Shown here: piece by piece, positions 10,384 to 64,000 of the stretch
Layout: each line of letters begins with the position of its first letter
How positions within the stretch are numbered: the first letter of the stretch is position 1
From: Chloroflexota bacterium
GTDB taxonomy: Bacteria; Chloroflexota; UBA11872; VXOZ01
DNA length: 64,000 nucleotides
Assembly (NCBI GenBank): GCA_965221905.1
Contig: OZ244922.1
Span: 2,656,001 to 2,720,000 of the forward strand
Direction of reading: 5' to 3'
Program-made: the position numbers and the translations under genes
Notes under the pieces: model-generated
The model's database searches: none
Told to the model about the DNA's origin: nothing
What the model saw: the letters and a program-made list of their open reading frames with translations, nothing else

Positions 10384-10425
10384 GCAAGCCGGTCTCTGCG
10401 TGCCATCGGGGAGCACAGCAAGTCC

Positions 10426-11160: not shown

Positions 11161-11205
11161 AGAACGCAAACACCACAAAGCGGGGACAAATCGTGATCGG
11201 GAGCT

Positions 11206-11280
11206 TGGCTCCGCGGCGAGGACTCGAACCTCGAACCAGACGGTTAACAGCCGCCTGCTCTACCATTGAGCTACCGCGGA
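11206..11280 (-). tRNA. tRNA-Asn (GTT)
   Basis: Reverse complement TCCGCGGTAGCTCAATGGTAGAGCAGGCGGCT-GTT-AACCGTCTGGTTCGAGGTTCGAGTCCTCGCCGCGGAGCCA: cloverleaf, TTCGA T-loop, encoded CCA. Confidence 0.96.
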
Positions 11281-11370
11281 AAGTGGACGATTCCAGTGTA
11301 CCAACGCGCACCGCACACGGTCAACGACAGCGACCGCATGACCTGGGAAAATGCCCGAAGCGAGTTCCTC

Positions 11371-13905: not shown

Positions 13906-15091
13906 GAAAGGTCTGAGCAAGTCGGGATATGCATCGGTTTATGGGTATGTGCGGGATTGTGGGGTGGTTTGAGGTGTGTCTTGGCATGTGGGAGGGGCTG
14001 TTTTGGCTTTGATGCGGTCCCGTTGGAAGCGCAATACGCTCCTGGCCGTGTTTTGGGCGCACTGCTCCCGTGTCATGTTGCCAACTGGCGTGCGGCCGTC
14101 ATCACATTGGTCAGCCCCAGCAGCAACGCCAGCCGTTGCCTGTTCTTGGACAGACCCCGGTAGCGCACCGTGGCGTAGCCGAAGTGCCGCTTCACCCACA
14201 GGAACGGATGCTCTACTTTGGCCCTAACCGATGCTTTGCGCTGCTCTGCCAGCGCCGCCGCGCTCTCAGGCGCCAGTTTCCGCCGCAGCCCCGGCTTGAG
14301 CGCCACCTGCCACGCTACGGCGCGCCCCTGATGCTCCGGTCGCTTCTGCACCCCCACGTACCCGGCGTCTCCCCACACCTGCTGCTCTGCGCCGTGCAGC
14401 AACGCCGCCGCTTGCGTTACGTCGTGCACGTTGGCCGATGTGGTGGTGAAGCTATGCACGAGCCCCGTCTGTGCGTCGACGCCGATGTGCAGCTTCATCC
14501 CAAAGTAATACTGGTTCCCCTTCTTCACCTGCCGCATCGCCGGGTCTCGCTCCCCCTCTCGGTTCTTCGTCGATGTCGGCGCCGCGATGATGGTCGCGTC
14601 CACTACCGTCCCCGCTCGCAGCCGCAAGCCCCGACCTGCCAAATGCGCGTTGATCTCCGCCAACAACCCCTCTCCTAACCGGTGCTTCTCCAGCAAATGC
14701 CGAAAGTGCAGAATAGTCGTCTCGTCCGGCAGCGCCTCTGACAGCCGCAGCCCCACGAACCGCCGCACCGGTTCTACCTCGTACAGCATGTCCTCCATCC
14801 CAGGATCGCTCAGGTTGTAGAACAACTGCACGCAGTGTATCCGCAGCATTACCGACAAGGGATACGGCCGCCGCCCCCGCCCTGGCTTGGGATAGTACGG
14901 CGCAATGCGCGCCTCCATCTCCGCCCACGGGAGCAGCGCGTCCATCCGCTCCAAGAACTTCTCCCGGCGCGTCTTGCGCTTCTTCTGCGCGTACTCCAAG
15001 TCGGCAAACGTCGGTTGCTCCATTACCCAGCTCCTCACCGTATCCTGCTTTCTTGCTATGATACTATGCCAGGGACTTGTTCAGAGTTTTC
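13906..15091 (-). mobile_element. IS5 family insertion sequence (~1.19 kb)
   Basis: Imperfect terminal IRs GAAAGGTCTGAGCAAGTC / GACTTGTTCAGAGTTTTC, flanked by CTAG and TTAG (YTAR targets); ends uncertain by 1 bp. Confidence 0.88.
14073..15023 (-). CDS. IS5 family DDE transposase
   Basis: KKRKTRREKFL, MLRIH..Q..YNLSDP.MED, PDETTI, VDATII, FGMKLHIGVD, GDAGY, RAKVEHPF, RYRGL; GAGGAG RBS. Confidence 0.95.
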   Translation of the reverse strand: MEQPTFADLEYAQKKRKTRREKFLERMDALLPWAEMEARIAPYYPKPGRGRRPYPLSVMLRIHCVQLFYNLSDPGMEDMLYEVEPVRRFVGLRLSEALPDETTILHFRHLLEKHRLGEGLLAEINAHLAGRGLRLRAGTVVDATIIAAPTSTKNREGERDPAMRQVKKGNQYYFGMKLHIGVDAQTGLVHSFTTTSANVHDVTQAAALLHGAEQQVWGDAGYVGVQKRPEHQGRAVAWQVALKPGLRRKLAPESAAALAEQRKASVRAKVEHPFLWVKRHFGYATVRYRGLSKNRQRLALLLGLTNVMTAARQLAT

Positions 15092-48650: not shown

Positions 48651-49922
48651 TCAGGCTTGTTGGTATTCACGCACGATGGAGCAGGCCTGGTTGACTACAG
48701 TCGCCACATCATCGCCGTCCACGAGAGCTTCTTCCAAATACCGGTTTGTACGCAGTTGCACCCCAGTCTGCGGCCAACCGCTTTCATGTTTCATAGACTG
48801 CTGTAGCGCGGTCACTTCTTCCGGTCGCAGGTCCTTCCGGGTCTCTCCTAGCATCGCTACCGCTTCTCTCTGTGCGGGCACAGTCACGTACTTCTGCATG
48901 ACGTTCGCCAGACCCCTCAGCGCTGAATACGCGGCCTCCGGGTTGGCGGTTCTCGCCGCAATCGCAATCCCGAAGTCTCCAAGCACCGGCACGGCGCGCA
49001 CCTTGCCGCGCGGGATCTCTGCCAGCCGGAAGTCGCCGTGGGACGGGCGCTTCGGGGCAAGACTGTAGACCATCGCCGGCGGCGTCCCCGACTCAAAGAT
49101 CAATTTCCCTAACTCTCTGTACAAAGCGGGCGAAACTCGATAGGTATGGAGTAGGTCGCGAAAGAACTGCAGGGCTTCAATCGCCGCCGGCTCCTGCAGC
49201 CGGCACTGCAACGTGTCCGGGTCTACCGCGTCCGCTTCGTTCTGCCAGAGCGCCCACCAGAGCCCATTGCTGTGTGTCGCCAGCCCCCAGCGCGCCACGG
49301 CGCCGTCTGCTCTCCGCTTCGTCAGCTTTGCCGCATTCGCCACCAGGGCATCCCAGTCCCAGTTGCTATCCACCGGCGGCACGCCCTCCCGCCGGAACTG
49401 TGCAGCATCATAGTAGAGCACCTGCGGGCGCACCCCTACCGGCAGGGCGTAGAGCGCGCCATTCGCTCGAAATTGGGAAAGTACATTGGGATAATACTCT
49501 TGCTCAATGTCAGGTCCATCGGTACCGCTGAACCGGTCCAGGGGCAAGAGTACCCCTCTTTCTCCTAGAGCCTGCGCATCATACGACGCCACCGTCACGA
49601 GGTCTGCTTCAAGGTCTTCCAGCAGTGCAGCATACTCATCCCAATGCGGAAACGTCCCGATTCGGCGCAGGGCAAGGCTGTAGCGGCCTTGTTCGAACCC
49701 ATAAGGATCATCTGCATCCTCTGCAAGCTCTGCCACTGCCTGTCGGTATTTCTCAAGAGGTCTCACCCCGTGTGTACCAGCGAGACTTGCAATCGAATCG
49801 GAGAACGCCAGATTCAAGCTTGTTTCTTGCAACGGGCCTGTCACCTTCGACTGAGAATCGAGGAAACCACAGCCCGTGGCGAGTAACGACGTGGCTATTA
49901 GCATGTTTCGGCGTGATAGCAT
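48651..49922 (-). CDS. Extracellular solute-binding Tat lipoprotein, copy 1
   Basis: SRR + LATGC lipobox; GVLLPLD, GALYALP, LYYD..F, W.WD.L...A.KLT family-1 SBP motifs. Confidence 0.85.
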   Translation of the reverse strand: MLSRRNMLIATSLLATGCGFLDSQSKVTGPLQETSLNLAFSDSIASLAGTHGVRPLEKYRQAVAELAEDADDPYGFEQGRYSLALRRIGTFPHWDEYAALLEDLEADLVTVASYDAQALGERGVLLPLDRFSGTDGPDIEQEYYPNVLSQFRANGALYALPVGVRPQVLYYDAAQFRREGVPPVDSNWDWDALVANAAKLTKRRADGAVARWGLATHSNGLWWALWQNEADAVDPDTLQCRLQEPAAIEALQFFRDLLHTYRVSPALYRELGKLIFESGTPPAMVYSLAPKRPSHGDFRLAEIPRGKVRAVPVLGDFGIAIAARTANPEAAYSALRGLANVMQKYVTVPAQREAVAMLGETRKDLRPEEVTALQQSMKHESGWPQTGVQLRTNRYLEEALVDGDDVATVVNQACSIVREYQQA

Positions 49923-50135
49923 CTTCTTGCTCCTTCTCAGCGCCGTTTCACTGCTTGTCTGCGGCAAACTTCCTCGCGCACGAACCAGGCGATCTTTCAA
50001 TTGAATTCTAGGTGCGTTTGGGCTTCTTGCGCCGGATAGCGGGGAACAAGCCCCCGCGCTGTGCTGGCTAGAGTGACAGTCTAGTGTTGACAAGGAGCAT
50101 CAGCCAAGGGTCGCCGTTTACTACCGAGCAGGGCT
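49923..50135. repeat. Spacer module type II with REP hairpin (50038-50062)
   Basis: Closely similar to 57205-57409. Confidence 0.8.
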
Positions 50136-51448
50136 TTAGGCTTGCTGGTTCTCGTAGAATACAGTGCAGCCTTGATTGACCGCGGAGGTCACGTCGTCGC
50201 CGCGTGCGAGCGCCTCTACCAAGCGGAACATGGCACGGCGCTGCGCTATGTCATCAGGTCTCCCACGTCCGTATTCCATTGACTGTTGTATCGCCGTGAC
50301 CTCTTCCGGCTGGAGGTTTGGCTGGATCTGCCCGAGCCGCGCCACCGCCTCGCGCTCGCTAGGTACTCTGACATGCGGTTGCATGGTCTTCACAAGTCCC
50401 CTGAGCGCCATGTAGGCCGCCTCGGGATTGGCGGTTTGCGCGGCAATCGCAATCCCTGGGTAGGGATTGACCTGCGTGCTTGGCACCTTGCCCCGGGGTA
50501 GCTCTGCTCTACGATACTTGGCGCCAATCGCGAGGTAAAGGACAGGAAAATATATCATAGCCGGTGGGGATTCCAATGCACCATAGACAAACCTGTCCAG
50601 ATCATTTCCGGCGGCCGCGGGCGAGACAACATGGGTGTGCATCAAATCCCAAATGTACTCTCTAGCGCTTTGACGGCGGCCGGTTCCTGCAATCGGCATT
50701 GCGACGTTAGCGCGTCAGCTACCTCCGCTTCGTTCTGCCACAGCGCCCACCAAATTGAATAATCGTGCGCTATCAACCCCCAGCGCGTTACCGTGCCGTC
50801 CTCCTCACGCTGCGTCAGCCGCAGCGCGTTCTCAACCAGGACGTCCCAGTCCCAGCTACCGTCCGGCGGGGCCACCCCCATGCTTTCGAAATAGTCCGCA
50901 TCGAAAGAGAGCATCAGCGGATCCGCGCCTACCGGCAGAGCGTAGAGCGCGCCCTTCTCACGGTAATAATCAAGGACAGACGAATAGTATTCGCCACTGA
51001 GCCCGGACCCATCGCCGCTGAACCGGTCCAGGGGCAGCAATGCGCCCCGCTCCCCTAAGGCGCGCGCTTCGTCATGCCACACGGTCACGAGGTCCGCGCC
51101 AATTTCGTTCAGCCAGGATGCCAAGTGCTCGGGCTTGTAGAACTCCTCCGCTTCGGGATCCGAGTAGGGACCCGCGTAGCGCTCAAAGTATTGCAGTGAC
51201 AGGCTGTAGCGCCCGCGCGTGGGACCGAAGGCGCTGTCACTGTCTTCTGCTAGAATCCGCTCTATCCGCCGAAGTTTTTCCTCAGGCGACGCCACAAGGT
51301 GCCCAGGACCGAGACCGGTTATTATGTGCGAAACCCAAGTCAATGGGGTAATCTTCGGAGCGCCCAGCACCGGAAATGGAATATCCAGCCCGCCACAGCC
51401 GGCCGCGAGAACTGCCGTACTTCCAATCAACGTTCGGCGTGATAGCAT
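50136..51448 (-). pseudogene. Solute-binding lipoprotein copy 2, frameshifted
   Basis: ORFs 50642-51448 and 50136-50699 join; CTAGAGAGTAC has an extra AG relative to in-frame CTA GAG TAC at ~50660. Confidence 0.8.
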
Positions 51449-51660
51449 GACTTCCTTCCTTGCCATGAATCCTACATTCTCAAGACTGCAGGGCGCTCCC
51501 TAGTGCATAGACCAGCCCACCTCCCAACAGCTATCCCAGTTGGTTCATGCTTCTTGCGCCAGGCAGCGGGGGACAAACCCCCGCGCTACGACTGGGGGAA
51601 TGGCGAGTTAGAGTTGGCAACGAGAACTAGCCAGTTCCCACGGCTAATTTTCGCTGACTC
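51449..51660. repeat. Spacer module type I with REP hairpin (51565-51589)
   Basis: GACTTCCTTCCTTGCC.TGAATCCTACATTCTCAAG...CCCCCGCGCTAC; repeated at 52942 and 55719. Confidence 0.85.
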
Positions 51661-52941
51661 TCACGTCCGCTGGTTCTCGTAGAGGGTGGAGCAGCCTTGG
51701 TTGACTGCGGAGGCCACGTCGTCGCCGCGCACGAGCGCCTCCACCAGGTCGTACATAGCGCGATGCTGGGCCGGATCATGCGGCTCCGCGCGACCGTGTT
51801 CCATCGACTGCTGTATCGCCGTGACTTCTTCCGGTAGGAGGTCTGACCGGATCTGCCCAAGCCGCGCCACCGCTTCTCTCTCAGCGGGAATATAGACATG
51901 TGGCTGCATAGCGTGCACGAGTCCCCTGAGAGCCGTGTAGGCTGCTTCCGGCTTGGCAGTTTGCGCGACAATCGCGATTCCCGGATCGGTCCTGACCGGC
52001 ACGCTGCGTACTTTGCCCACGGGTAGCTCTGCCCGGCGATAATGGTCATACGGTGGCCCAATGGGGACCGGGCGATACACCATCGCAGGCGGCACTTTCC
52101 ACTCCCATTCCGCAGGAGAGACGCGGTGGGTGTGTATCAGGCCGCGGACATAATCCAAGGCTTCGATCGCTGCCGGTTCCTGGAGCAGACATTGTGAGGT
52201 AAGCGGGTCAATCATCTCGGTTTCGTTCTGCCAAAGCGCCCACCAAACAGAAAAGCCGTGTGCTGCCAGCCCCCAGCGCGACACTGTCCCGTCCTCCTCC
52301 CGCTGTGTCAGCTTGAGCGCGTTTTCCAGCAGGTCGTCCCAGTCCCAGCTACTGTCCGGCGGCACTACTCCCACCTGCGCAAAGTAGTCAACATCGTAGT
52401 AGAGCATCTGTGGGCCAGCGCCTATTGGCAGGGCGTAAAGCGCGCCGCTCTCTCGATTCGGATCAAGTACAGACGAGTAGAACTCCCCATTGAACCCAGA
52501 GCCATCGCCGCTGAACCGGTCCAAAGGCAGCAAGACGCCCATCTCCCCGAGCGCGCGCGCCTCGTCAGGCCACACGGTCACGAGATCTACGTCTACTTCA
52601 TCCAGCCACGCCGCCAAGTGCTCCACTTTGCGGAACTCCTGCGCAGCGGGATCAGAGTAGGATCCTGCGTAGCGCTCAACGTATTGCAGGGCAAGGCTGT
52701 AGCGCCCGCGCATGGGACCGAAGGGGTTTTCATCGTCATCCGCCAGTTTCCGCTCCATCCGTCGAAGCTTTTCCTCAGGCGGAAAGATACCGGGCCCAGT
52801 GCTGAAACCGGGAAGCGCGCGAGAGACCCAGGTCAATGGAGTGACCTTCGGAGTGCCTAGCTCTGGAAAGGAAAAATCCAGCCCGCCGCAGCCGGCCACC
52901 AGCACCGCTGTGCTTCCTATAAGCGTTCGGCGTGAAAGCAT
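51661..52941 (-). CDS. Extracellular solute-binding Tat lipoprotein, copy 3
   Basis: MLSRRTL..LVAGC, same SBP motifs, GGAAGGAAG RBS. Confidence 0.87.
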   Translation of the reverse strand: MLSRRTLIGSTAVLVAGCGGLDFSFPELGTPKVTPLTWVSRALPGFSTGPGIFPPEEKLRRMERKLADDDENPFGPMRGRYSLALQYVERYAGSYSDPAAQEFRKVEHLAAWLDEVDVDLVTVWPDEARALGEMGVLLPLDRFSGDGSGFNGEFYSSVLDPNRESGALYALPIGAGPQMLYYDVDYFAQVGVVPPDSSWDWDDLLENALKLTQREEDGTVSRWGLAAHGFSVWWALWQNETEMIDPLTSQCLLQEPAAIEALDYVRGLIHTHRVSPAEWEWKVPPAMVYRPVPIGPPYDHYRRAELPVGKVRSVPVRTDPGIAIVAQTAKPEAAYTALRGLVHAMQPHVYIPAEREAVARLGQIRSDLLPEEVTAIQQSMEHGRAEPHDPAQHRAMYDLVEALVRGDDVASAVNQGCSTLYENQRT

Positions 52942-53155
52942 GACTTCCTTCCTTGCCGTGAATCCTACATTCTCAAGACTGCAGGGCGCTCCCTAGTGCA
53001 TAAACCAGTCCACCTCTCAACAGCTTTCCCAGTGGGTTTACGCTTCTTGCGCCTGGAAGCGGGGGACAGGCCCCCGCGCTACGATTGGTGAAATGGCGGG
53101 CTAGTGTCGACAATCAGAATTAGCCAAGGAATCACGTCTACTCCCGTGCCTGTCC
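52942..53155. repeat. Spacer module type I with REP hairpin (53058-53082)
   Basis: Direct repeat of 51449-51660 and 55719-55932. Confidence 0.85.
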
Positions 53156-54466
53156 TCAGGCTTGTTGGTATTCACGCACGATGGAGCAGGCTTGATTCAC
53201 TGCAGTAGCAACATCGTCACCGCGTACGAGACCCTGAAGTGCTGAATCCATCGCAAATAACGCCGGGGCGCTTCGCGGCTGGGCGCGACCATGCTCCATG
53301 GACTGCTGAATCGCCAGGACCTCTTCAGTATGAAGGTCTGACCGTAATTCCTCGAGCCGTGCTACCGCATTTCTCTTTGCGGGAATTACCACATGCTGCT
53401 GCAAAGCGTCGACAAGACCCTTTAGTGCAATGTAGGCCGCCTCTGGCTTCTGTGTGCGCGCGACAATGCCAATCCCTAGGTCACCGTACACTGGAACGCT
53501 GTGCACTTTCCCCTGAGGCAACTTTGCTAGGTGGTAGTGTCCCGGCGGGCGTATGGGAGGACTGCTATACACCATGGCTGGCGCGAACCTTGCCGGCTCA
53601 AGAACGAGTTTCACTAAATCCATGTAGAGGAGCGCAGGAGAAACACGATGAGTGTGCAGCAGGCTGTGCACGAACTGCAGGGCTTCGACGGCGACCGGTT
53701 CCTGCAGCCGGCACCGCATCGTCTCCAGGTCAACCACGTCCGCCTCGTTCTGCCACAACGCCCACCAGAGTTGACTTCCATGCGCTGCCAACCCCCAGCG
53801 CAAGACTGAGCCATCCGCCCTTCGCTTTGTCAGCTTTAGCGCGCTTTCAACGAGATCATGCCAGTCCCAGATGCTGTCTACTGGCGGGGCAACATCCTCC
53901 AGCGCAAAGTAATCAACATCGTAGTAGAGCATCAGCGGACGTGCGTCGACCGGCAGGGCGTAGAGCGCCCCTTGCCGAAACTGCTCGAGCACACTTGGGT
54001 AGAATGCCTGTTCAAGGGCAAAGCTGTCGGATGAAATTAGCTGGTCTAGAGGCAGCAACACGCCTTCTTCCCCTAGCGCCCTTGCCCCCTCCGGTCCCAC
54101 AGTTACGAGGTCTGCCCCAAGATCGTGCAGCCATTGAACGAACTCTCCCTCGGCCAATTCCGGCAACTGTTCCACGTGGCGCAAAGTGAGGCGGTACTTT
54201 CCACGCTTCTGACCATAAGGGTTCTCTTCATCCTCCTCAAGGGCAGATACGGCCTCTTGGTATTTCTCCACAGGGCGGAGGCCTGCAATGGGATTCATAA
54301 GGCCAGGGAACCAGCTAAAGGTCACCCAGGTTAGCTCCGCCTCTTGTGGTGAGCTTGGCGCGGAAAAGAATGACCCAAGAGGACCACAACTGGCTGCGAG
54401 CACCGACGCGCCTCCGATCATGGTTCGGCGTGTTAGCCTGATTCTCCGGCGAAGTTCCATAGTCAC
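53156..54466 (-). CDS. Extracellular solute-binding Tat lipoprotein, copy 4
   Basis: LTRRTM..LAASC; GTG start overlaps stop of copy 5; same SBP motifs. Confidence 0.85.
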   Translation of the reverse strand: MTMELRRRIRLTRRTMIGGASVLAASCGPLGSFFSAPSSPQEAELTWVTFSWFPGLMNPIAGLRPVEKYQEAVSALEEDEENPYGQKRGKYRLTLRHVEQLPELAEGEFVQWLHDLGADLVTVGPEGARALGEEGVLLPLDQLISSDSFALEQAFYPSVLEQFRQGALYALPVDARPLMLYYDVDYFALEDVAPPVDSIWDWHDLVESALKLTKRRADGSVLRWGLAAHGSQLWWALWQNEADVVDLETMRCRLQEPVAVEALQFVHSLLHTHRVSPALLYMDLVKLVLEPARFAPAMVYSSPPIRPPGHYHLAKLPQGKVHSVPVYGDLGIGIVARTQKPEAAYIALKGLVDALQQHVVIPAKRNAVARLEELRSDLHTEEVLAIQQSMEHGRAQPRSAPALFAMDSALQGLVRGDDVATAVNQACSIVREYQQA

Positions 54467-55718
54467 CCACCCGATGGACCACCTGTTTGCTGGTACTCCC
54501 GCAAAACGGAACAGGCCTGGTTGACCACGGTTGAAACGTCTTCGCCCCGTACCAGACCCTCTGCTATCGCACTCATGGCGTACAACTCCGGCTTGCCTTG
54601 CGGCAGTCGCGGCATCTCCCGTTCAGCCGCCATGGAACGCTGAATTGCCTGGATTTCGTCGGAGCGGATGCCGGGCTGAAATTCTCCGAGCCGTTCGATT
54701 CCGTCCCTGGTTGCGGGCACGGTGGCATGCCGCTGCATGGCGTGCACCAGACCCTGGAGGGCCGTATAGGCCGTCTCAGGACTTTGTGTTCCCGCGGCGA
54801 TAGCAAGCCCAACGCCTGCCCTCACCGGCACGGCCTGCGTCTTGCCTTGGGGAATCTGAGCCAAACCGTACGAGCCAAAACTCGGGCGCAGCGGCGGGTT
54901 ATTGTAGACCATAGCCGGTGGCGGGGTCACCTTCATCAAATCCATGCCGAGAGCAAGTGGCGACACCTGCAAGGTGTGCAGGAGTTTCCACACAAATTGC
55001 AGCGCTTCGATTGCGGCCGGTTCCTGCAAACGACACTGCAACGCTGCCGGGTCCGCTACGTCCGCATCGTTTTGCCACAGCGCCCACCAGAGCTTACTAT
55101 GCGCCCGCAATCCCCAACGCCGCACTACGCCGTCTTGCCCGCGATTAGTTAGCTTCGCCGCATTTTCTGCCAGTTCGTCCCAGCCCCAACTGCTGTCAAC
55201 CGGCGGCACTCCCCGCTGTGCGAAATACACTCTGTCGTAATAGACCATCACGGGCAAGGCGCTAACCGGCAGCGCATAGAGCGCCCCTTGCGCCCGAAAC
55301 TGATTCAGTACCCCCGGAAAGAACACCGCGTTGAGCGCACTTTCATTGGCGTCGCTGAACCGATCCAGAGCATGCAACACCCCCATTTCCCCAGTAACCT
55401 TGCCTCCTCCACGGACACTGTGAGCAGGTCCGCCTTGAGCTCGTGCCATGCATCCACGTCGTCCCAGCGGGGCGCCTGCTGTATAGCGCGAACTTGGAGA
55501 CGGTAACGCCCGCCCGGCGGGCCAAGCGGATTCGCTGGGTCTTCATTTAGGGCGTCGACTATTTGCTGCTGATTGCCAATGCCGAGGAATGGCCTCCAGA
55601 CCCACACGAGCTCAGTCTCGTGGAGCGTGACCGGTCCGGACACTAGCGACTCAAGCTGACCGCAGCCAACGGCACATAGGGCTGCCGCGCTGACTGTCAA
55701 CGCTCGGCGTGAAAGCAT
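54463..55718 (-). pseudogene. Solute-binding lipoprotein copy 5, frameshifted
   Basis: ORFs 55305-55718 and 54463-55449 join; G4 run at 55389-55392 (minus) is one G short of CTG GGG GAA ATG. Confidence 0.8.
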
Positions 55719-55932
55719 GACTTCCTTCCTTGCCGTGAATCCTACATTCTCAAGTCTGCAGCGTGCTCCCTAGACCAATAACCAGTTCACCTCTCAACAG
55801 CTTTTCCAGTGGGTTTACGCTGCTTGCGCCAGGAAGCGGGGGACAAGCCCCCGCGCTACGATTGGTGAATTGGCGGGATTGTGTCGACAACGAAAATTAG
55901 CCAAGGATTCACGTATACTCCCGTGCCGGTCC
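55719..55932. repeat. Spacer module type I with REP hairpin (55835-55859)
   Basis: Direct repeat of 52942-53155. Confidence 0.85.
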
Positions 55933-57204
55933 TCAGGCTTGTTGGTATTCACGCACGATGGAGCACGCTTGGTTGACTACAGTCGCCACATCATCGCCGT
56001 TCACGAGAGCTTCAACTAAATATCTATCTGCACGTAATTGCACCCCTGTTTGCGGCCAACCGCTTTCATGTTTCATAGACTGCTGTAGCGCGGTCACTTC
56101 TTCCGGTCGCAGGTCCTTCCGGGTCTCTCCTAGCATCGCTACCGCTTCTCTCTGTGCGGGCACAGTCACGTACTTCTGCATGACGTTCGCCAGACCCCTC
56201 AGCGCTGAATACGCGGCCTCCGGGTTGGCGGTTCTCGCCGCAATCGCAATCCCGAAGTCTCCAAGCACCGGCACGGCGCGCACCTTGCCGCGCGGGATCT
56301 CTGCCAGCCGGAAGTCGCCGTGGGACGGGCGCTTCGGGGCAAGACTGTAGACCATCGCCGGCGGCGTCCCCGACTCAAAGATCAATGTCCCTAACTCTCT
56401 GTACAAAGCAGGCGAAACTCGATAGGTATGGAGTAGGTCGCGAAAGAACTGCAGGGCTTCAGTCGCCGCCGGCTCCTGCAACCGGCACCGCAACGTGTCC
56501 GGATCTACCACGTCCGCTTCGTTCTGCCAAAGCGCCCACCAGAGCCCATAGTTGTGAGTCGCCAGCCCCCAGCGCGCCACGGCGCCGTCTGCTCTCCGCT
56601 TCGTCAGCTTTGCCGCATTCGCCACCAGGGCATCCCAGTCCCAGTTGCTATCCACCGGCGGCACGCCCTCCCGCCGGAACTGTGCAGCATCATAGTAGAG
56701 CACCTGCGGGCGCACCCCTACCGGCAGGGCGTAGAGCGCGCCATTCGCTCGAAACTGGTCGAGCACATTGGGATAATACTCTTGCTCAATGTCAGGTCCA
56801 TCGGTACCGCTGAACCGGTCCAGGGGCAAGAGCACCCCTCTTTCTCCTAGAGCCTGCGCGCCATACGACCCCACCGTCACGAGGTCCGCTTCAAGGTCTT
56901 CCAGCAGTGCTGCATACTCATCCAAACCCGGCCACGTACCGACTCGCCGCAGGGTAAGGCTATAGCGGCCTTGTTCGAACCCATAAGGATCATCTGCATC
57001 CTCTGCAAGTTCTGCCACTGCTTGCCGATATTTCTCAAGAGGTCTCACCCCGTGTGTGCCAGTGAGACTTGCAATCGCATCGGAAAACGCCAGATTCAAG
57101 CTTGTTTCTTGCAACGGGCCTGTCACCTTCGCCTGAGACTCGAGAAAGCCGCAGCCAGCGGCAAGCGCCGCTGTACTTCCAATCAGCGTTCGGCGTGAAA
57201 GCAT
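55933..57204 (-). CDS. Extracellular solute-binding Tat lipoprotein, copy 6 (near-identical to copy 1)
   Basis: MLSRRTL..LAAGC; long identical stretches with 48651-49922. Confidence 0.87.
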   Translation of the reverse strand: MLSRRTLIGSTAALAAGCGFLESQAKVTGPLQETSLNLAFSDAIASLTGTHGVRPLEKYRQAVAELAEDADDPYGFEQGRYSLTLRRVGTWPGLDEYAALLEDLEADLVTVGSYGAQALGERGVLLPLDRFSGTDGPDIEQEYYPNVLDQFRANGALYALPVGVRPQVLYYDAAQFRREGVPPVDSNWDWDALVANAAKLTKRRADGAVARWGLATHNYGLWWALWQNEADVVDPDTLRCRLQEPAATEALQFFRDLLHTYRVSPALYRELGTLIFESGTPPAMVYSLAPKRPSHGDFRLAEIPRGKVRAVPVLGDFGIAIAARTANPEAAYSALRGLANVMQKYVTVPAQREAVAMLGETRKDLRPEEVTALQQSMKHESGWPQTGVQLRADRYLVEALVNGDDVATVVNQACSIVREYQQA

Positions 57205-57409
57205 CTTCCTGCTCCTTCTCGGTGCCGCTTCTTCTCTTGTCCGCGGCGTACTTCCTCGCGTACGAACCAAGCGATCTCTCAAGGGAATCCTAAGTGAGTT
57301 TGGGCTTCTTGCGACGGATGGCGGGAGGGGGGGGGGGACAAGCCCCCGCGCTGCGCTGGCTAGGATGACAGTTTAGTGTTGACAAGGAGCATCAGCCAAC
57401 GGTCGCCGT
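57205..57409. repeat. Spacer module type II with REP hairpin (57321-57354, expanded poly-G)
   Basis: Closely similar to 49923-50135. Confidence 0.8.
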
Positions 57410-58675
57410 TTACTCCTGCGTCTTCCCACCTGTTTGCTGGTACTCACGCAAGAGGGAACAGGCCTGGTTGACGACCGTCGACACGTCGTCACCGCGCACA
57501 ATTCCCTCTACTAGTGCTGCCATGGTGTAGAGTTCCGGCGCGCCCTGCGGCATACGTGGCATCTCGCGTTCGGCTTCCATTGACCTTTGAATTGCCGTCA
57601 CTTCCTCCGGCCTCAATCCCTTTTGGAACTCCCCAAGCCTTTCAATTGCTTCTCTCGCTGCGGGCACAGCGGCATGCCGTTGCATGGCATGCACCAGACC
57701 CTTCAGCGCCGTGAAGGCTACATCAGGCTTCTCAGTATTTGCGGCAATACCGACTCCCACGCCCGCCCTCACGGGTACAGCACGCACTTTGCCATGAGGG
57801 ATCTCTGCCAAGCGGTAGGAGCCATAATTCGGACGTAAAGGGGGATTTGTATAGACTATGGCTGGCGGCGGAGTCATCCTCACTAAGTCCATATTGAGAA
57901 GGGGAGGCGAAACTCGGTCTCTATGCAGTAGCCCGCTCACGAATTGAATGGCTTCTACAGCGGCTGGTTCTTGAAGCCGACACTGCAATGTTCGACTGTC
58001 AACCATCGCCGCTTCGTTCTGCCACAATGCCCACCAGATTTGACTATGTGCCGACAATCCCCAACGCCGCACGACGCCATCTTCCCCACGATCAGTCAGT
58101 TTCATCGCGTGGCGTGCAAGCTCATCCCAACTCCAATTCCCCTGCACTGGCGAAACCTGCTTCAGGGCAAAGTAGTCAACGTCGTAGTACACCATCAATG
58201 GCAATGCACTTGCGGGCAGCGCGTAGAGCGAGCCCTGTGCCTGAAACTGATTGAGCACACCCGGAAAGAAGGCCGAGTTGAGCGCAGCCCTATCAGTGCC
58301 ACTGAACCGCTCCAGTGGCAGCAGCACTCCGTTCTCCCCCAATACCTTCGCCTCTTCCGCCGACACGGTTAGCAAGTCCGCCTCAAGACCGCGCCATGCA
58401 TTTAGATCATCCCAGCTTGGCGCAAGAGCCAAGTTGCGCAGCTTAAGTCGGTAGCGTCCCCGCTGTGAGCCTTCAGGGTTCTCATCGTCTGCGGCGAGCG
58501 TAGCAATTATCTGCTGCGGATCATCAAGTCCAACTAGCCGCCGCGAGACCCAGGTAAGTTCAGTCTCTTTGGGCACGCTCGGCCCGGAAATAAGTGACTC
58601 GAGTGGGCCGCAGCCGACAGCAGCAAACGCCGAAGCGCTGGCCATCATTACTCGGCGTGAGAGCATAGTATTCAT
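57410..58675 (-). CDS. Extracellular solute-binding Tat lipoprotein, copy 7 (first transcribed)
   Basis: MLSRRVM..AVGC; same SBP motifs; closest to copy 5. Confidence 0.87.
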   Translation of the reverse strand: MNTMLSRRVMMASASAFAAVGCGPLESLISGPSVPKETELTWVSRRLVGLDDPQQIIATLAADDENPEGSQRGRYRLKLRNLALAPSWDDLNAWRGLEADLLTVSAEEAKVLGENGVLLPLERFSGTDRAALNSAFFPGVLNQFQAQGSLYALPASALPLMVYYDVDYFALKQVSPVQGNWSWDELARHAMKLTDRGEDGVVRRWGLSAHSQIWWALWQNEAAMVDSRTLQCRLQEPAAVEAIQFVSGLLHRDRVSPPLLNMDLVRMTPPPAIVYTNPPLRPNYGSYRLAEIPHGKVRAVPVRAGVGVGIAANTEKPDVAFTALKGLVHAMQRHAAVPAAREAIERLGEFQKGLRPEEVTAIQRSMEAEREMPRMPQGAPELYTMAALVEGIVRGDDVSTVVNQACSLLREYQQTGGKTQE

Positions 58676-58736
58676 CCTAGATTTACGGTTTTGGATTCTT
58701 GCTGCATCCTTTCATCCGATTCGCAGCCAAGAAACC

Positions 58737-58782
58737 GCAGAGTGCCCAAGAAAATGTCGATGTCTACTCCTGGGCACTCCGC
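58737..58782 (-). terminator. 15-bp stem-loop after the Cys-rich peptide gene
   Basis: GCGGAGTGCCCAGGA...TCTTGGGCACTCTGC pairs fully only on minus strand (two G-U), followed by GGTTTCTT. Confidence 0.6.
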
Positions 58783-58848
58783 AAGTCCCCTCAGCCCTCC
58801 TTCCACTCGCATTTTAAGGAGAGAAGCAATCTACCAGAATGCGCTTTG

Positions 58849-59169
58849 TCAACTGCACGAAATGCACCCTACTAAGGTGACTTCATTGTGGCAGGCCCCT
58901 CCTGAGAGGCAGTGAACTCCTGTTCGCACGTGGTACCTGCCTTTGTCGTTACCGCAGCCATGGTCGCCGCAGAAGCCATTAATGTGGTAGCTACCCGTCT
59001 CGCAGAAATAGGGTCCCACACAATGATTGTCGGCAGAAACTCCTACAGCAGCGAGACCGGTGAGCACGGCAGCGCCTGTGGTGGCGCGCACCAGTCTTCC
59101 CAGAAATCCGCGTCGGTTCATGCTGGCCTTTGCCAGGCCGACACTCGCATTCGCAAATAGCTTATCCAT
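58849..59169 (-). CDS. Tat-exported Cys/His-rich peptide with MauA-like leader
   Basis: GGGAGG RBS; MDKLF...NRRGFLGRL Tat motif, VSA cleavage site; 60-aa mature part with 8 Cys, 6 His, 0 Trp. Confidence 0.8.
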   Translation of the reverse strand: MDKLFANASVGLAKASMNRRGFLGRLVRATTGAAVLTGLAAVGVSADNHCVGPYFCETGSYHINGFCGDHGCGNDKGRYHVRTGVHCLSGGACHNEVTLVGCISCS

Positions 59170-59271
59170 GGGTTTACCTCCCATGCTTTGCATGCATTGC
59201 GTCTGTGATGCGACTATCGCGTGGGACATCTTTACACTTGGTGTTCGGGTTCCACGCTCTGTGCGCGGATG

Positions 59272-59844
59272 TCACACGCTCTCATTCTTTGGCAAGCTGC
59301 CGGTCGTCACATCAGTAGCGAGCAGCTCGCCTAGCACATGCACATCGTTCACCACCCCCTTTCCAGCGATTTTGCCATCGGCATCGACCACGAAGCCGTA
59401 CGGCGTCCAACTACTGCCGTACAAGTCGGCTATCTCATGCTCCTGCTGGATCACCAGCGGACACGAGAGCTTGAATTCTGCAATCATCTCTTGGTTCTGC
59501 TCACGGCTGCCGCCGCTTACGAGCACCAAGCGCGCGCCTTGTTCCTCAATGCTGTTCATTTCCCCATTCAGGCTCGCGAACAGTTCCTTGCAGGGCGGGC
59601 AGGTGGGATGAACGAAGAGCACCAACAGCCGCTCGCCAGCCATGGTCTCCAGGTCAACCGCCCCATTGAGACCCTCTCCTTGGAAGAGCGGCGCTTTGTC
59701 ACCGACCGCGATACCGTTCTCGCGCTCTTCCCCGACGCGTAGGCGCAACTCGCCAATCTGCCGCATGAGGCCAATGACGACGAAGGTGAGCAGGCCCATG
59801 AGGACCCATTGCAGTAGGTACGATGCCAGCCAGATGCCTTCCAT
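59272..59844 (-). CDS. MauD-like membrane-anchored thioredoxin-fold (redoxin) protein
   Basis: TM then MRQIG.L, G..VGDKAP.F, LFVHPTCPPCKEL (CxxC), TPYGFVVD..G.I.GKGVVN; CAGGAGG RBS. Confidence 0.85.
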   Translation of the reverse strand: MEGIWLASYLLQWVLMGLLTFVVIGLMRQIGELRLRVGEERENGIAVGDKAPLFQGEGLNGAVDLETMAGERLLVLFVHPTCPPCKELFASLNGEMNSIEEQGARLVLVSGGSREQNQEMIAEFKLSCPLVIQQEHEIADLYGSSWTPYGFVVDADGKIAGKGVVNDVHVLGELLATDVTTGSLPKNESV

Positions 59845-59888
59845 GCCTCTTGCCTCCTGATCCACTTTGGCGACCGGTTGCCGTTGAT

Positions 59889-59936
59889 GCTTCGACCCTT
59901 CGACAAGCTCAGGACAGGCAACCTCAGCACGAACGG
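59889..59936. repeat. Nested CTTCGACAAGCTCAG REP-like element
   Basis: GCTTCGAC[CCTTCGACAAGCTCAGGACAGG]CAACCTCAGCACGAACGG, same nesting as 15133-15172. Confidence 0.7.
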
Positions 59937-60029
59937 ATCCGCGCATGCTCACCATAGTGTGTTAGAGCCTAGCCCCTCCGCCCCGCCTGGATTCCGGCTT
60001 GCGCCGGAACGACGGATAGTTGCTTTCCT

Positions 60030-60620
60030 TCAATATGATTGGGGAATAGTGCGCAGCCGCAGCAATTCGGCGGCGACGAAGGCCACCGCCCACGCCCCGA
60101 TCACGAACAAGGCAACCCCTGCCACGCTGCTGGCGTCCCCAGTGAGACCGACCTCCACTAGCCAAGTTGCACCGGCAGTGGGCGCCAGGAGTACAAGCAA
60201 TGTCAGGATGACGACCTGCTTGATGATGGTGGCTTTGCCCAGCGGCTGACGGCCCGCGCCGAAGCAGTAGCAGTCGATCCCGCCCCGGCCCTGTGCTAAC
60301 GCCACGGACGAGGCTACGATGAAAGCTACCACCAGGATTACGCCCAACCACACACCCCATGCCACGGCAAAGCCCGTGATGAGCAAAGTGCCACAGAGGA
60401 GTTCCAATACGGGGATCGCGCCACTCACCGGCTGGAGCGCGCGCACCGGCACGAGACCAAATCCCTGCACCGCCGCTTTGAAATCGGACAGGTGCAGCAA
60501 CTTGGCGGCGGCAGCCAGGAGAAAAACGCCACCCACCAGGAATTGGAGCACGAGCACGCCAGTTGCAAGCATTAGCCCGTTCCTTCCAGATCGGGAGGGA
60601 CCTTTTGGCATATCCTCCAC
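60030..60620 (-). CDS. MauE/DoxX family redox-associated membrane protein
   Basis: VFL.AAAAKL...F...V..F.LVP, P.LEL..G..L, L..F......GRGGIDCYCFG (DCxCFG motif). Confidence 0.88.
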   Translation of the reverse strand: MEDMPKGPSRSGRNGLMLATGVLVLQFLVGGVFLLAAAAKLLHLSDFKAAVQGFGLVPVRALQPVSGAIPVLELLCGTLLITGFAVAWGVWLGVILVVAFIVASSVALAQGRGGIDCYCFGAGRQPLGKATIIKQVVILTLLVLLAPTAGATWLVEVGLTGDASSVAGVALFVIGAWAVAFVAAELLRLRTIPQSY

Positions 60621-60681
60621 GATCTCTCTCCCAACCCACTTTTAGCGTCATTATTGACTAGCACTGTTATGTCATACATGC

Positions 60682-60709
60682 ATGCTAGCACATAATAATA
60701 ATGTGTCAA
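60682..60709 (-). promoter_or_regulatory. Putative sigma70 promoter (extended -10) with overlapping palindromic operator
   Basis: TTGACA-16 bp-TAGCAT with TG at -15/-14; CACAT-AATAATA-ATGTG palindrome overlaps the spacer. Confidence 0.55.
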
Positions 60710-60864
60710 TAGTTAAATGAACTAACTCTTGAGATTCCGTGAGATACTGCACGTTCTCAGATAAGAACGCGGTTGCTCACCTTGCAAGAATGGTGGGCAT
60801 GCGGGGATCCGGCGCCCAGGAGATCAGCGAGGGGGTAACAGCGCCTTGAGCCAAGCGCTTGAGG

Positions 60865-61662
60865 CTATGCCTCTAGCTGTGGCGGGGGAAGGAGCTGAGT
60901 GATGTGCGACATGGCGGCGTCTACGTGGCGCTTGCCGTCCTGCAGCGAGAAGCTCCCGTGGCCGGGGAATAACTGCGTGAATTCCAGCTCAGCAAAGCGC
61001 TTTACGGTGGCGATGGACTCCTCAAGCGAGCAATCCCAGATGTTCTGGAGAATGATGCGGCCGCCAGAAAAGAGGGCATCGCCGCTGAAGAGAGCGCGGT
61101 GTGCGCCGCCTCCGCGTTGCGCGCCGCCTCCTCGTTGCGGGCAGTCTTCGCGTTGCGCGCAGTCGTCAACAAGGAATGCCAGGTGGCCGCGGCTATGGCC
61201 GTCGGCTTTCAAAACCGTCACAGTGAGCGACCCAACGTTGATGACGTCGCCATCCGCAGCAGCGGTCGCGGACGCCACCGGCCGCAAGCGGTTTTCTAAC
61301 GGATACATGCCTGTTTGACGCGCGGCAACCAGGCTCGCCGCCTCTTCATCACCGGTCTCGAGCCAGCCGGCAACGTCCTGGGAAGCGATTATTTCGGCGC
61401 CACATAATTGCTGCAACTCCGCGGCGCCACCGGCATGATCGAGGTGCAGGTGCGTGACGAATATCTTGGAAATGTCACGGGGATCGAAACCGGCGGCCTC
61501 AATCTGTGCCGCTATCGCCGGTGTGTCCCTGCCGACGCCGGTATCGATGAGGGCCAGTTCCGATCCTCCGTCGAGCAGATAGACGTGGCAATCGAGCGGG
61601 TCGGTGAGGCTAAAACCGCTTTGGCCGCTGCCAACAAGATGAACGATATTCGTGAGTTGCAT
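60865..61662 (-). CDS. MBL-fold metallo-hydrolase
   Basis: LIDTG, THLHLDHAGG, GHSRGH, FSGD, PGHG. Confidence 0.92.
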   Translation of the reverse strand: MQLTNIVHLVGSGQSGFSLTDPLDCHVYLLDGGSELALIDTGVGRDTPAIAAQIEAAGFDPRDISKIFVTHLHLDHAGGAAELQQLCGAEIIASQDVAGWLETGDEEAASLVAARQTGMYPLENRLRPVASATAAADGDVINVGSLTVTVLKADGHSRGHLAFLVDDCAQREDCPQRGGGAQRGGGAHRALFSGDALFSGGRIILQNIWDCSLEESIATVKRFAELEFTQLFPGHGSFSLQDGKRHVDAAMSHITQLLPPPQLEA

Positions 61663-61740
61663 GAGTCGACACCCTCTGTGTAGACATCCTTGCAAAACTC
61701 GTCTAAACGAGCGGGATTGGACTGCATTGACTAGGATTCA

Positions 61741-61826: not shown

Positions 61827-62336
61827 TCAACGTCGGATAAGCCGGAAAAGGACGTAAATGAGGCCGATAACGAGACCGCAGATCGCCGCGCCGCGTGTAT
61901 CGAGGAGTGTATTGACGTTTCCGTTCACGCGACCGCCAATCACCACCACACTTGCCACCTGCTCCGCCTCGATCTGCCCGCCGACAATCCATTGCGATAC
62001 CGAGTAGTTCGTATCCACACTGCCGCCGACCACCAGCCACGTCGCCCCTTCTGTCACGCTCACTTCATGGCCGGCCGCGATTCCTGTCAGGCCCTGCTGC
62101 AGCGACGCAGCCTCCGCTTGCACGACTCCGGTAGCCGTATTCTGCATGTCAATATCATCGGCGACCACGTGCCGCACGAGACTATTCGCAATTTGGAAAC
62201 GCTCGTCTACTTCCGTTGCGTCTCCGGCAGCGTCTTGCACGCCGTCACCCATTGCTTCTCTAGAGACGTCTTCCGAAACGTCATTGTCTACCGGCACTTG
62301 CCCCGGCTGCACCTCAGAAGACCCCATATTGGGCAT
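61827..62336 (-). CDS. Hypothetical acidic protein with C-terminal TM anchor
   Basis: GAAGAAGGG RBS; beta-helix-like middle, C-terminal hydrophobic helix ending RR. Confidence 0.65.
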   Translation of the reverse strand: MPNMGSSEVQPGQVPVDNDVSEDVSREAMGDGVQDAAGDATEVDERFQIANSLVRHVVADDIDMQNTATGVVQAEAASLQQGLTGIAAGHEVSVTEGATWLVVGGSVDTNYSVSQWIVGGQIEAEQVASVVVIGGRVNGNVNTLLDTRGAAICGLVIGLIYVLFRLIRR

Positions 62337-62440: not shown

Positions 62441-63607
62441 CTACTCAGATACCGCGCGCGCGTAATCCATCACCTGCTTCACCGGCACCTGTGCCGCCGT
62501 TGCAACTTGCAAGCAGTCTTCGTACTCCGGACTGCGATTCACTACCTTGCCGTGCCAGTGCGCGACCTTGATCCGCACCGCACCCCACGGTGTGCCCACG
62601 TGCTCCACCTGCCGCTCCAGCTTGATCCGCTCGACCCGGTGCATGCGTACGCCAATCGTCGTGGTCTCTTGAAAGACAATGTCCAGCAGGGGCGTGTGGT
62701 CTGCGGCTTCCGTCAGCACACTGAGCACGTGACCGGGCCTGCCCTTCTTCATCTGAACGGGGGCCAACATCACGTCCAGCGCGCCGGCCTTGAATAATTG
62801 CGCGGAAACGTGACCATACAACTGCGGATTCATGTCGTCGATTGTGGTTTCGATAACGGTTGCCATGCCATGGGTGTTTGCAGCCGTTTCCTCCCCGATG
62901 ATGAGGCGCAATACGTTGGGGATTTCGCTGTCGCGCATGCCCGCGCCGTAGCCCACGCGTTTCACCTGCATTGTCGGGATTGGGCCGAACTCATCCGCCA
63001 ACTCGCTCAGCAGGAGCGCGCCGGTTGGCGTTAGGGTCTCACCCATGTCCGCCATGGCATAGATCGGTTTGTCCTTCATCAAATCCAGCGTCGCCGGACC
63101 CGGAATCGGCCACCAACCGTGACGAGTCTGAATGGGCGCGCTGCCTCCGATGTTAACGGGTGAGCAGACGATGCGCTCGATACCAAGCGCCCGCAGTCCC
63201 GCCACCACACCGACGACGTCGAGGATTGAATCGACCGCGCCGACTTCATGAAAGTGCACCGCCTCCGGCGCCACGCCGTGCATGCGGCCCTCGACTTCCG
63301 CCAAACGCTCAAAGAGTCGTTTACTTGCCGCGACTACGTCCTCGTCGAGGCTGCTCCCTTCGAGGAGCTGCACAATATCGTGGAGGTTTCGCTCAACCGT
63401 ATGCTCATGCGCATCAATGTCGATGTGAACTTGCAATGCCCGGAGCAGCCCCTTGCGCACTTCCTCCGACCGGACCTCATAGCCGCCGAGCGGAATCTTG
63501 GCGAACGTGGCCTTGAGATCGTCCAGCGCCCAGCCGCCATCCACCAAGGCGCCAAGCATCATATCGCCCGATGCTCCGGCAAAGCAGTCGAAATAGGCGA
63601 CTCTCAT
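62441..63607 (-). CDS. larC: Nickel pincer cofactor biosynthesis protein LarC
   Basis: [59 protein letters not shown]. Confidence 0.95.
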
Positions 63608-64000
63608 GGCTCCTCCTGCGTGTCACCGCTCTCGGCAACGCGACAAATCAAACCGGCCATGTACCCGGCGCCGAACCCATTGTCGATGTTTACGACGGAT
63701 AGACCGGCGGCACAGCTATTGAGCATGGTGAGAAGCGGCGTGAGCCCGCCAAGGGAAGCGCCGTAGCCTACGCTTGTCGGTACGGCGATTACCGGACGAT
63801 CGATCAGTCCGGCAAGTACACTCGGCAGCGCACCCTCCATCCCGGCCACGGCGACCACCACGCGCGCCTGTTGCACGACTGCGATATTCAGCAAGAGCCG
63901 ATGCAGCCCGGCCACGCCTACGTCCGCCAGGCGATCTACCTGACAACCCATCAGCTCCGCTGTCAGGCAAGCTTCGGCAGCCACCGGCAAGTCCGCCGTG
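63604..64000 (-). CDS. larB: Nickel pincer cofactor biosynthesis protein LarB (5' truncated by window)
   Basis: [48 protein letters not shown]. Confidence 0.93.

Follow-up and report, generated by a model that had tools for sequence, protein, structure and literature searches.

A 64,000-nucleotide stretch of a Chloroflexota bacterium genome (contig OZ244922.1 of assembly GCA_965221905.1, positions 2,656,001 to 2,720,000; the whole stretch is called the window here) carries on its minus strand a cassette of four kinds of genes. They encode a MauE-like membrane protein, a MauD-like thioredoxin-fold protein, a Cys-rich peptide of 106 residues with a twin-arginine translocation (Tat) leader, and a Tat lipoprotein with the fold of a solute-binding protein (SBP). 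We suggest, with moderate confidence, that this is an oxidative-folding and secretion cassette for disulfide-rich mini-proteins, each of which has a cognate binding lipoprotein. No published description of a MauED-peptide-SBP cassette was found in the literature covered, which was incomplete and excluded supplementary material.

The first three genes had been picked out in an earlier note on this DNA as a mauE-like gene with the motif D-C-Y-C-F-G, a mauD-like gene with CPPC and a 106-residue open reading frame (ORF) with a Tat motif. All three are present at unchanged coordinates, head to tail on the minus strand (Table 1). The mauE motif is the CXC-F-G active-site motif of MauE as given in the main text of a preprint (10.64898/2026.03.05.709764). 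The mauD-like ORF as listed covers 59272-59955 and runs across a repeat element. We regard its N-terminal extension as spurious because the mauE-mauD spacer holds two short repeat elements (59888-59936 and 59981-60020, with about 48 and 52 copies genome-wide); translation probably begins at the ATG at 59844, with AGGAGG 9 nt before it. The protein matches AhpC-TSA (61.9 bits) and also Redoxin, and a hydrophobic N-terminus is visible in its sequence. Its best NCBIfam match is MauD TIGR02661, at 67.1 bits and under the equivalog cut-off of 188.6, and alignment over 92-97% of its length with the products of the nine best-covered annotated plasmid MauD genes gives identities of 28.6-33.2%. Like MauD, it has an N-terminal membrane anchor, a CxxC thioredoxin fold and a gene that directly follows mauE. 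Thus, among the three family searches that the earlier note had proposed, the one for MauE exceeded its cut-off, the one for MauD stayed below the equivalog threshold and the one for the methylamine dehydrogenase (MADH) light chain gave no match.

The small ORF (58849-59169) starts with the ATG at 59169, and the strong ribosome-binding site noted before is GGGAGGT, 7 nt upstream. Its predicted mature part of 60 residues has 8 Cys, 6 His and no Trp, as first counted. The only NCBIfam match is the Tat signal TIGR01409, at 15.5 bits with a cut-off of 16.7, and TatC is encoded in the genome (209 bits). This ORF is not a chance frame because it has 48 clusters of homologues and 26 copies in 12 genomes. 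The clusters were recovered from 5.8 billion proteins with a profile of three paralogues, and the sole name among them is 'hypothetical protein' of a Chloroflexota metagenome-assembled genome. A scan of 1.84 billion representatives gave 13 clusters only, none of them a MauA. The 26 copies, from whole-genome searches, all belong to one genus. The window's genome, a single contig of 3.52 Mb that is 99.64% complete, has two more loci of the same gene order, near 980 kb and near 3,084 kb, and both carry a paralogous peptide gene. The peptide is present in 11 of 16 other species of the genus and in none of 24 genomes that represent five further families of the class. In a phylum sample of 401 genomes from 217 genera it is confined to that genus, plus one weak match. 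Genomes with the peptide have 1 to 8 copies.

Across an alignment of 49 family members the leader is nearly constant, with M1, L4, S9, L12, A13, R19, R20 and F22 invariant. The eight Cys are each invariant or at least 90% conserved, and the residues between them vary. A conserved leader with a variable Cys-rich core next to mauED is the pattern that the earlier note had anticipated. Over 25 loci, the leader is the part most alike, with a mean pairwise identity of 72%, followed by the SBP at 56% and the core at 43%. Only one His, H49, is conserved in the 49 sequences, and relatives have from 1 to 10. The lack of Trp, on which the earlier note laid weight, is a trait of the window copy and not of the family, because 17 of 24 aligned relatives have Trp (0-3 each, at positions that are not conserved). 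For the peptide genes of 24 loci (alignment A4), the median synonymous divergence (dS) is 0.79 in the leader compared with 1.94 in the core, and recombination between copies may have homogenised the conserved 5' part.

AlphaFold2 with the 49-sequence alignment predicts three long beta strands for the core, with a predicted local distance difference test score (pLDDT) of about 83, and a disordered leader. The fold gave no Foldseek match in the PDB at E <=0.001, with laterosporulin at E = 2.1 only. The best Z in a wide VIA-align search was 3.5, and the MADH light chain was not among the rows listed. By sequence, a profile search of the PDB found only the twin-arginine signals of NosZ (E about 0.8), Pfam gave nothing recurrent over all 49 members, and a search of the ESM Atlas with the peptide gave no usable match.

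The link between MauE-MauD and the peptide was examined over 18 loci, which come from 12 genomes. A locus begins with a single mauE-mauD pair and continues with one to four peptide genes; in 15 of the 18 loci, the pair immediately precedes the first peptide gene. Of the 16 sister species, MauE and the peptide are both present in 9 and both absent from 5; the peptide occurs without MauE in 2, and MauE without the peptide in none. MauE is therefore missing from 7 of the 16, including all 5 that are peptide-free, and its distribution in this genus is that of an accessory gene linked to the peptide. A separate DsbB gene (52.3 bits) lies elsewhere in the window's genome, in which no VKOR was found. 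Because of this DsbB, MauE would be an additional oxidase and not the only one. The central proposal of the earlier note, a MauE/MauD pair tied to a small Cys-rich Tat protein distinct from MauA, is borne out by this co-occurrence and by the absence of any MauA match among the 49 family members.

According to the main text of the preprint cited above (10.64898/2026.03.05.709764), MauE complements an E. coli dsbB deletion through its CXC site and the conserved F-G that follows, and occurs in 6,470 species, only 10.2% of which have MauA. The system described there resembles ours in the CXC motif followed by F-G, in its occurrence without MauA and in being a membrane protein thought to act through a thioredoxin-fold partner. 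It differs in that MauE is treated there as a generalist, whereas in this genus it is accessory, stands beside DsbB and is locked to one client family. The parts of the preprint considered here do not mention a peptide or an SBP cassette.

The two broken mauE copies of the window's genome lie at about 981121-981690 and at 3083399-3083957 (loci L002 and L003); one break is an internal TAA and the other a frameshift, and the mauD and peptide genes of both loci are intact. If the breaks are real, one mauE copy must serve all three loci of the genome. In another genome (G015), mauE has an internal TAG. At 10281-11291 of locus L019 (genome G005), a 336-residue ORF on the opposite strand lies between mauE and mauD; judged by eye, it looks like an insertion-sequence transposase, which would separate the pair.

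The features that the earlier note had not described are the SBP lipoprotein after every peptide gene, the arrays, the two further loci and the parallel cassettes in other genera. An SBP-family gene follows directly on the same strand after all 26 peptide genes; 25 of these are intact and one has an internal TGA. For each peptide gene there are one to four SBP_bac_1-type genes with twin-arginine lipoprotein signals. The window's peptide type and its SBP come first after mauED in the window, and last or third in two sister genomes (G004 and G005), so that a module keeps its partners when its array position changes. The SBP family is wider than the peptide family, with 22 matches in the window's genome and up to 25 in a sister species. 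With a profile of the peptide-adjacent SBPs, copies in the peptide loci of the window's genome score 654-710 bits and copies elsewhere 509-562 bits. A peptide-linked subclade seems to have arisen inside the broader family. Among solved structures, sugar-binding proteins come nearest to the SBP, with E values of 3e-7 or weaker. Neither the window array nor the genome's other SBP arrays contain or adjoin a gene for an ABC permease or ATPase. Peptide-free SBP arrays of this genome (G000:C1) lie at 943-948 kb, 1096-1103 kb, 1565 kb and 3501 kb, likewise with no such genes nearby.

We suggest that the two proteins of a module are partners. Over 25 pairs, the identity between peptide cores correlates with that between the adjacent SBPs (Pearson 0.77, a value reached by none of 2000 Mantel permutations), compared with a correlation of 0.25 for the leader. 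In 13 of the 25 pairs, the nearest relative in another genome is at the same locus for both genes. A complex of SBP residues 23-421 and peptide residues 47-106 was predicted from paired alignments of 24 of the 25 pairs. The interface score ipSAE was 0.93, 0.93 and 0.94 in three runs, against 0.63 for the best of three controls. Of 80 solved complexes, 58 attain the calibration mark for this score, as do 2 of 110 mismatched pairs, and these counts are only a rough guide because our own alignments were used for the complex prediction. Contacts agree by at least 89% between runs, and the partners have pLDDT of at least 87. In the modelled complex, the peptide hairpin 61-74, which includes the conserved G65 and C67, lies in the cleft between the two SBP lobes, with predicted contacts to SBP residues 45-48, 105-107, 303-305 and 374-386. 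The model supports binding of the peptide by its neighbouring SBP, which we regard as probable. Mean column entropy is 2.19 bits for the 36 interface residues of the SBP and 1.12 bits for the other 363 (Mann-Whitney p = 1.6e-11). Since the peptide cores and SBP clefts vary together, we read the modules as polymorphic ligand-binder pairs.

The mechanism that we propose for the cassette is as follows. The 106-residue precursor would be exported by Tat via its conserved long leader and cut after V-S-A. MauD would sit in the membrane by its anchor and expose its CPPC thioredoxin domain on the outer face, where it may put up to four disulfides in the 60-residue core, and MauE, as a DsbB-like membrane protein with a CXC site, would reoxidise MauD. 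The folded three-stranded mini-protein could then enter the cleft of the SBP encoded directly downstream with its hairpin tip, the conserved G-x-C-G, and the variable flanks of that tip. In the genomes, one mauED head goes with one to four peptide-SBP modules and with extra SBP genes that lack a peptide.

MauA, the light chain of MADH, is the one client of MauED known to have been characterised; it is a Tat substrate that gains its disulfides after export. The gene order mauF-B-E-D-A-amicyanin-J-G, read from the Paracoccus denitrificans PD1222 plasmid and from a Methylobacterium plasmid, agrees with the order given in the earlier note. In the window cassette, as in this cluster, mauE and mauD are followed by the gene of a small Cys-rich protein whose long leader is predicted to be of the twin-arginine type. 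However, the cassette is not a MADH locus. Six-frame searches of the whole genome gave no match to MauA PF02975, MauB PF06433 or MauG PF03150, so that the absence of mauB and mauG noted before for the window extends to the genome and to mauA. None of the 49 peptide family members matches PF02975, with E up to 10. There is no amicyanin either, and no beta-propeller heavy chain lies ahead of the cassette. The core has 60 residues compared with about 130 in MauA, and the window copy is without the tryptophans of the tryptophan tryptophylquinone cofactor. In addition, the peptide gene is multi-copy and variable, and each copy is then followed by an SBP-fold lipoprotein.

The likeness of the leader to that of MauA is less clear. 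MAFFT aligns leader residues and several Cys with MauA. When the peptide family was compared with true MauA by hhalign, 20 twin-arginine columns were aligned with a probability of 1.5%, and the core was without similarity. A hidden Markov model (HMM) of residues 1-46 was run against the 38,733 ORFs of at least 50 residues in the genome, together with 16 test proteins, i.e., two true MauA and 14 MauE-linked Cys-rich ORFs. The background was 38,730 frames and includes the genome's many twin-arginine lipoprotein signals. After the genome's three own copies, the next six matches are all test proteins: G065a (24.8 bits), G041 and G087 (18.6 bits each), the Methylobacterium MauA (15.1 bits, E = 0.047, above all background frames), G023 (12.3 bits) and G065b (10.5 bits), with the best background frame at 10.3 bits. 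The P. denitrificans MauA is outside the top 40, and an HMM of the n-region only matched none of the 16 test sequences. The whole leader ranks one MauA and five MauE-linked peptides above the background, and the n-region pattern named in the earlier note is not supported. We dropped a specific n-region motif in common with MauA on the n-region and hhalign results, and the whole-leader scores weakly suggest that a leader type is common to MauED clients. The claim that mauEDA was repurposed, and with it a direction of evolution, does not follow from the data.

Similar cassettes occur in other Chloroflexota. MauE is present in 89 of the 401 genomes of the phylum sample (a count that includes G249 and G171, flagged unpublished and used for no other result). 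In other genera, a stand-alone MauE is followed by a CxxC thioredoxin-fold protein and then by a small ORF with 8-20 Cys, which usually has a twin-arginine leader and has a core unrelated to that of the window. Among the 30 best-scoring MauE loci of the sample, 15 have fused MauE proteins (at least 360 residues), 12 have stand-alone ones and 3 have no ORF with the CXC motif; 4 of the 12 stand-alone loci clearly show MauE, thioredoxin and Cys-rich ORF within 1.5-kb flanks. SBP_bac_1 or SBP_bac_8 lipoproteins of 445-579 residues lie near MauE in L026 (the third locus of G004), L022 (G026), L062 (G087), L060 (G065) and L023 (G020). At L060 and L023 no Cys-rich ORF was identified beside the MauE gene, and MauE is accompanied by the SBP lipoprotein only.

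Two of these loci have further features. L022 (G026:C1:4012000-4031999) holds three MauE cassettes within 20 kb, with small Cys-rich ORFs (two without a twin-arginine motif), SBP-fold lipoproteins and two S26 signal peptidase paralogues. It also has a LuxR-type response regulator at 4493-5149, to which the ORF at 14271-15065 is similar in sequence. L061 (G247:C39:1-16000) has fused MauE proteins of 506 and 535 residues. One of them is followed by a small twin-arginine ORF with 16 Cys and then by three similar ORFs, one of which matches a phosphoesterase family; no SBP follows.

Other explanations of the window cassette were considered. It is hardly conceivable that the locus is a decayed MADH locus, with the small ORF as a truncated MauA remnant left after the loss of mauB and mauG, and we reject this. 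Though the order E-D-small ORF matches mauE-D-A and the MAFFT alignment is as described, the ORF is intact, conserved and multi-copy, with a fixed eight-Cys frame in 12 genomes. The family has no PF02975 match and no core similarity by hhalign, and the genome has no MADH gene. We also think it improbable that MauE-MauD is a general disulfide system whose position beside the small ORF and SBP genes is without functional meaning. Seven sister species, all five peptide-free ones among them, lack MauE; DsbB is present in the genome, MauED directly precedes the first peptide in most loci, and other families show this gene order with peptides that are unrelated. What speaks for a housekeeping role is the broad occurrence of MauE and the label of generalist in the main text of the preprint (10.64898/2026.03.05.709764), the genus-wide expansion of the SBP family, away from peptides too, and one genome (G010) that keeps the peptide without MauE.

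Equally, we give little credit to a metal-binding mini-protein, in which Cys pairs and His would bind Zn, Cu or Fe in the cytoplasm, Tat would export the folded form and MauED would only protect or edit thiols. Tat is typical for proteins that are folded or loaded with a cofactor before export, the four near Cys pairs (C-x5-C, C-x4-C, C-x5-C and C-x2-C) lie where strands end, in the manner of zinc knuckles, and there are 6 His in the window copy. However, His other than H49 are not conserved and their numbers differ widely between relatives, the tightly linked genes encode a DsbB-like oxidase and a thioredoxin-fold partner, and MauA shows that a Tat substrate can gain disulfides after export. 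A peptide signal with its receptor is unlikely, though less so than a metal-binding role. Here the oxidised mini-proteins would be secreted pheromones, the SBPs would be receptors that relay it to a sensor or transporter in the membrane whose gene lies elsewhere, and the variable pairs would be pherotypes. This would fit the SBP fold, which is a classic extracytoplasmic ligand receptor, the docking predicted in its cleft, the joint variation of ligand core and receptor cleft, and the LuxR-type regulator and S26 signal peptidases in the parallel cassettes of G026. It fits less well with the arrays of the genus, none of which contains or adjoins a gene for a kinase, a chemoreceptor or an ABC permease. 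Up to 8 peptides and 25 SBP copies per genome would be unusual for a pheromone system, and a knotted protein of 60 residues is presumably too large for an ABC importer.

Several points weigh against an oxidative-folding cassette with cognate binders. What it assumes of export, cleavage, disulfide formation and binding comes from inference or from models. The preprint, in its main text, calls MauE a generalist (10.64898/2026.03.05.709764). The window's mauE is the only intact one of the three in its genome, G010 has an intact peptide-SBP pair with no MauE found, and in G009, which is without MauE, the sole peptide copy is degenerate and has 6 Cys. The SBP family is present in all 16 sister species, with 3-11 copies in the five peptide-free ones, and about 9 SBP copies of the window's genome are in arrays far from peptides, without transporter genes nearby. 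The correlation between core and SBP identities could be explained by linkage alone. The control with ipSAE 0.63 is an unrelated protein of 62 residues, so that the model may tend to place small proteins in the SBP cleft. The interface entropy was compared with all other SBP residues, and surface residues tend to be variable anyway. The ratio of nonsynonymous to synonymous divergence (dN/dS), a crude pairwise estimate, did not exceed 1 in the peptide core; the median is 0.32, from 87 usable pairs of 276 with dS saturated. Net charges of the cores range from -8 to +4, unlike the cationic profile of many membrane-active bacteriocins.

As the biological role of the oxidative-folding cassette, we tentatively favor antagonism with sequestering immunity, or strain recognition, over signalling. 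In the case of antagonism, the LanI lipoproteins of lantibiotic immunity, such as NisI and SpaI, offer a comparison: the gene of a surface lipoprotein lies beside the peptide gene, and its product sequesters the peptide. LanI proteins are small and are not known to have an SBP fold, and the comparison holds only under an antagonistic role. More broadly, it is possible, though rather doubtful, that MauE, a MauD-like thioredoxin, a Cys-rich mini-protein with a MauA-type leader and an SBP lipoprotein together form an unrecognised class of extracytoplasmic ligand-binder modules found across the Chloroflexota, whose hypervariable pairs mediate antagonism or recognition at the strain level, and of which the mauEDA of MADH would be a specialised offshoot from an older cassette.

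The closest known systems are the mauEDA part of the MADH cluster and, as an analogue, the operon for sublancin in Bacillus subtilis SPbeta, sunA-sunT-bdbA-sunS-bdbB (PMC6391423). The sublancin operon likewise combines a secreted disulfide peptide with its own membrane oxidoreductase, BdbB, and a thioredoxin-like protein, BdbA, and it has a separate immunity gene. However, sublancin is glycosylated and exits by an ABC transporter-protease, BdbB is DsbB-like and not a MauE, there are no arrays of variable copies, and immunity is by a small membrane protein, SunI, and not by an SBP-fold lipoprotein.

If our reading is true, MauE/MauD, long known only as helpers of one enzyme, would have a second defined client class, and the role of MauED outside methylotrophs would become directly testable. 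It would point to small, stable, disulfide-knotted secreted proteins whose binding partners are given by gene order, and it suggests that the SBP fold can be used to capture a folded mini-protein without an attached transporter. Such pairs could be of use in understanding interactions among uncultured Chloroflexota and as scaffold-binder pairs.

Table 1. Features of the window cassette and its SBP array, in window coordinates
Feature	Position	Strand	Remarks
Promoter-like site TTGACA, 16 nt, TG-TAGCAT	60682-60709	minus	Upstream of mauE; consensus match only
mauE, membrane disulfide-forming protein (predicted)	60030-60620	minus	Pfam MauE PF07291, 80.7 bits, cut-off 27
mauD-like membrane-anchored thioredoxin-fold protein, CPPC	59272-59844	minus	AhpC-TSA/Redoxin-fold match
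Mini-protein leader, residues 1-46	59032-59169	minus	Conserved n-region, N-R-R-G-F-L-G, V-S-A cleavage site (predicted)
Mature core, 60 residues, and stop codon	58849-59031	minus	8 Cys: C50, C56, C67, C72, C87, C93, C102, C105
SBP-fold Tat lipoprotein	57410-58675	minus	Directly after the peptide gene; SBP_bac_1 (PF01547) 39.5 bits, cut-off 26
Six more SBP-family genes of the array (listed below)	48651-57282	minus	SBP_bac_1 matches
SBP-family array gene	55933-57282	minus	
SBP-family array gene, broken	54463-55718	minus	
SBP-family array gene	53156-54466	minus	
SBP-family array gene	51661-52941	minus	
SBP-family array gene, broken	50136-51466	minus	
SBP-family array gene	48651-50093	minus	

The promoter-like site has 10 of 12 consensus matches and is the best of 6 sites in 53000-61000; the interval from the small ORF to the gene that follows it on the minus strand gave no terminator-like site. 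From mauE, the array extends down to 48651 and includes seven SBP genes, two of them broken. Four of the six further SBPs are above the SBP_bac_1 cut-off, and in each of the two broken genes the match is confined to the larger fragment; the smaller ones (55305-55718 and 50136-50699) gave no family match. Each broken gene is split into two overlapping frames, and both are probably pseudogenes or the result of sequencing frameshifts.

Contigs from four metatranscriptome runs were available in assembled form only, which is uninformative on levels, on strand and on whether the RNA is real. Run X17 has contigs at 58796-59058, in the peptide gene, and at 57444-57662, in the SBP gene, with no differing letters and a depth of 3-6. 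In run X19, a 997-nt contig of a 90-95% relative spans mauD and mauE. These are a weak hint that the peptide gene is expressed. Several parts of the window are without contig cover in the four runs, which proves nothing. The depth of up to about 5,450 at 59881-60082 is due to a genome-wide repeat and not to expression.

Upstream of the cassette lie genes for a metallo-beta-lactamase (MBL)-fold hydrolase (60865-61695), a 169-residue protein without a family (61827-62336) and LarC (62441-63607), and then, at 63604-63999, what by eye appears to be a LarB-like gene for the nickel-pincer cofactor. In the orthologous loci of two sister genomes, an ORF of 253-281 residues with a near-identical N-terminus adjoins mauE.

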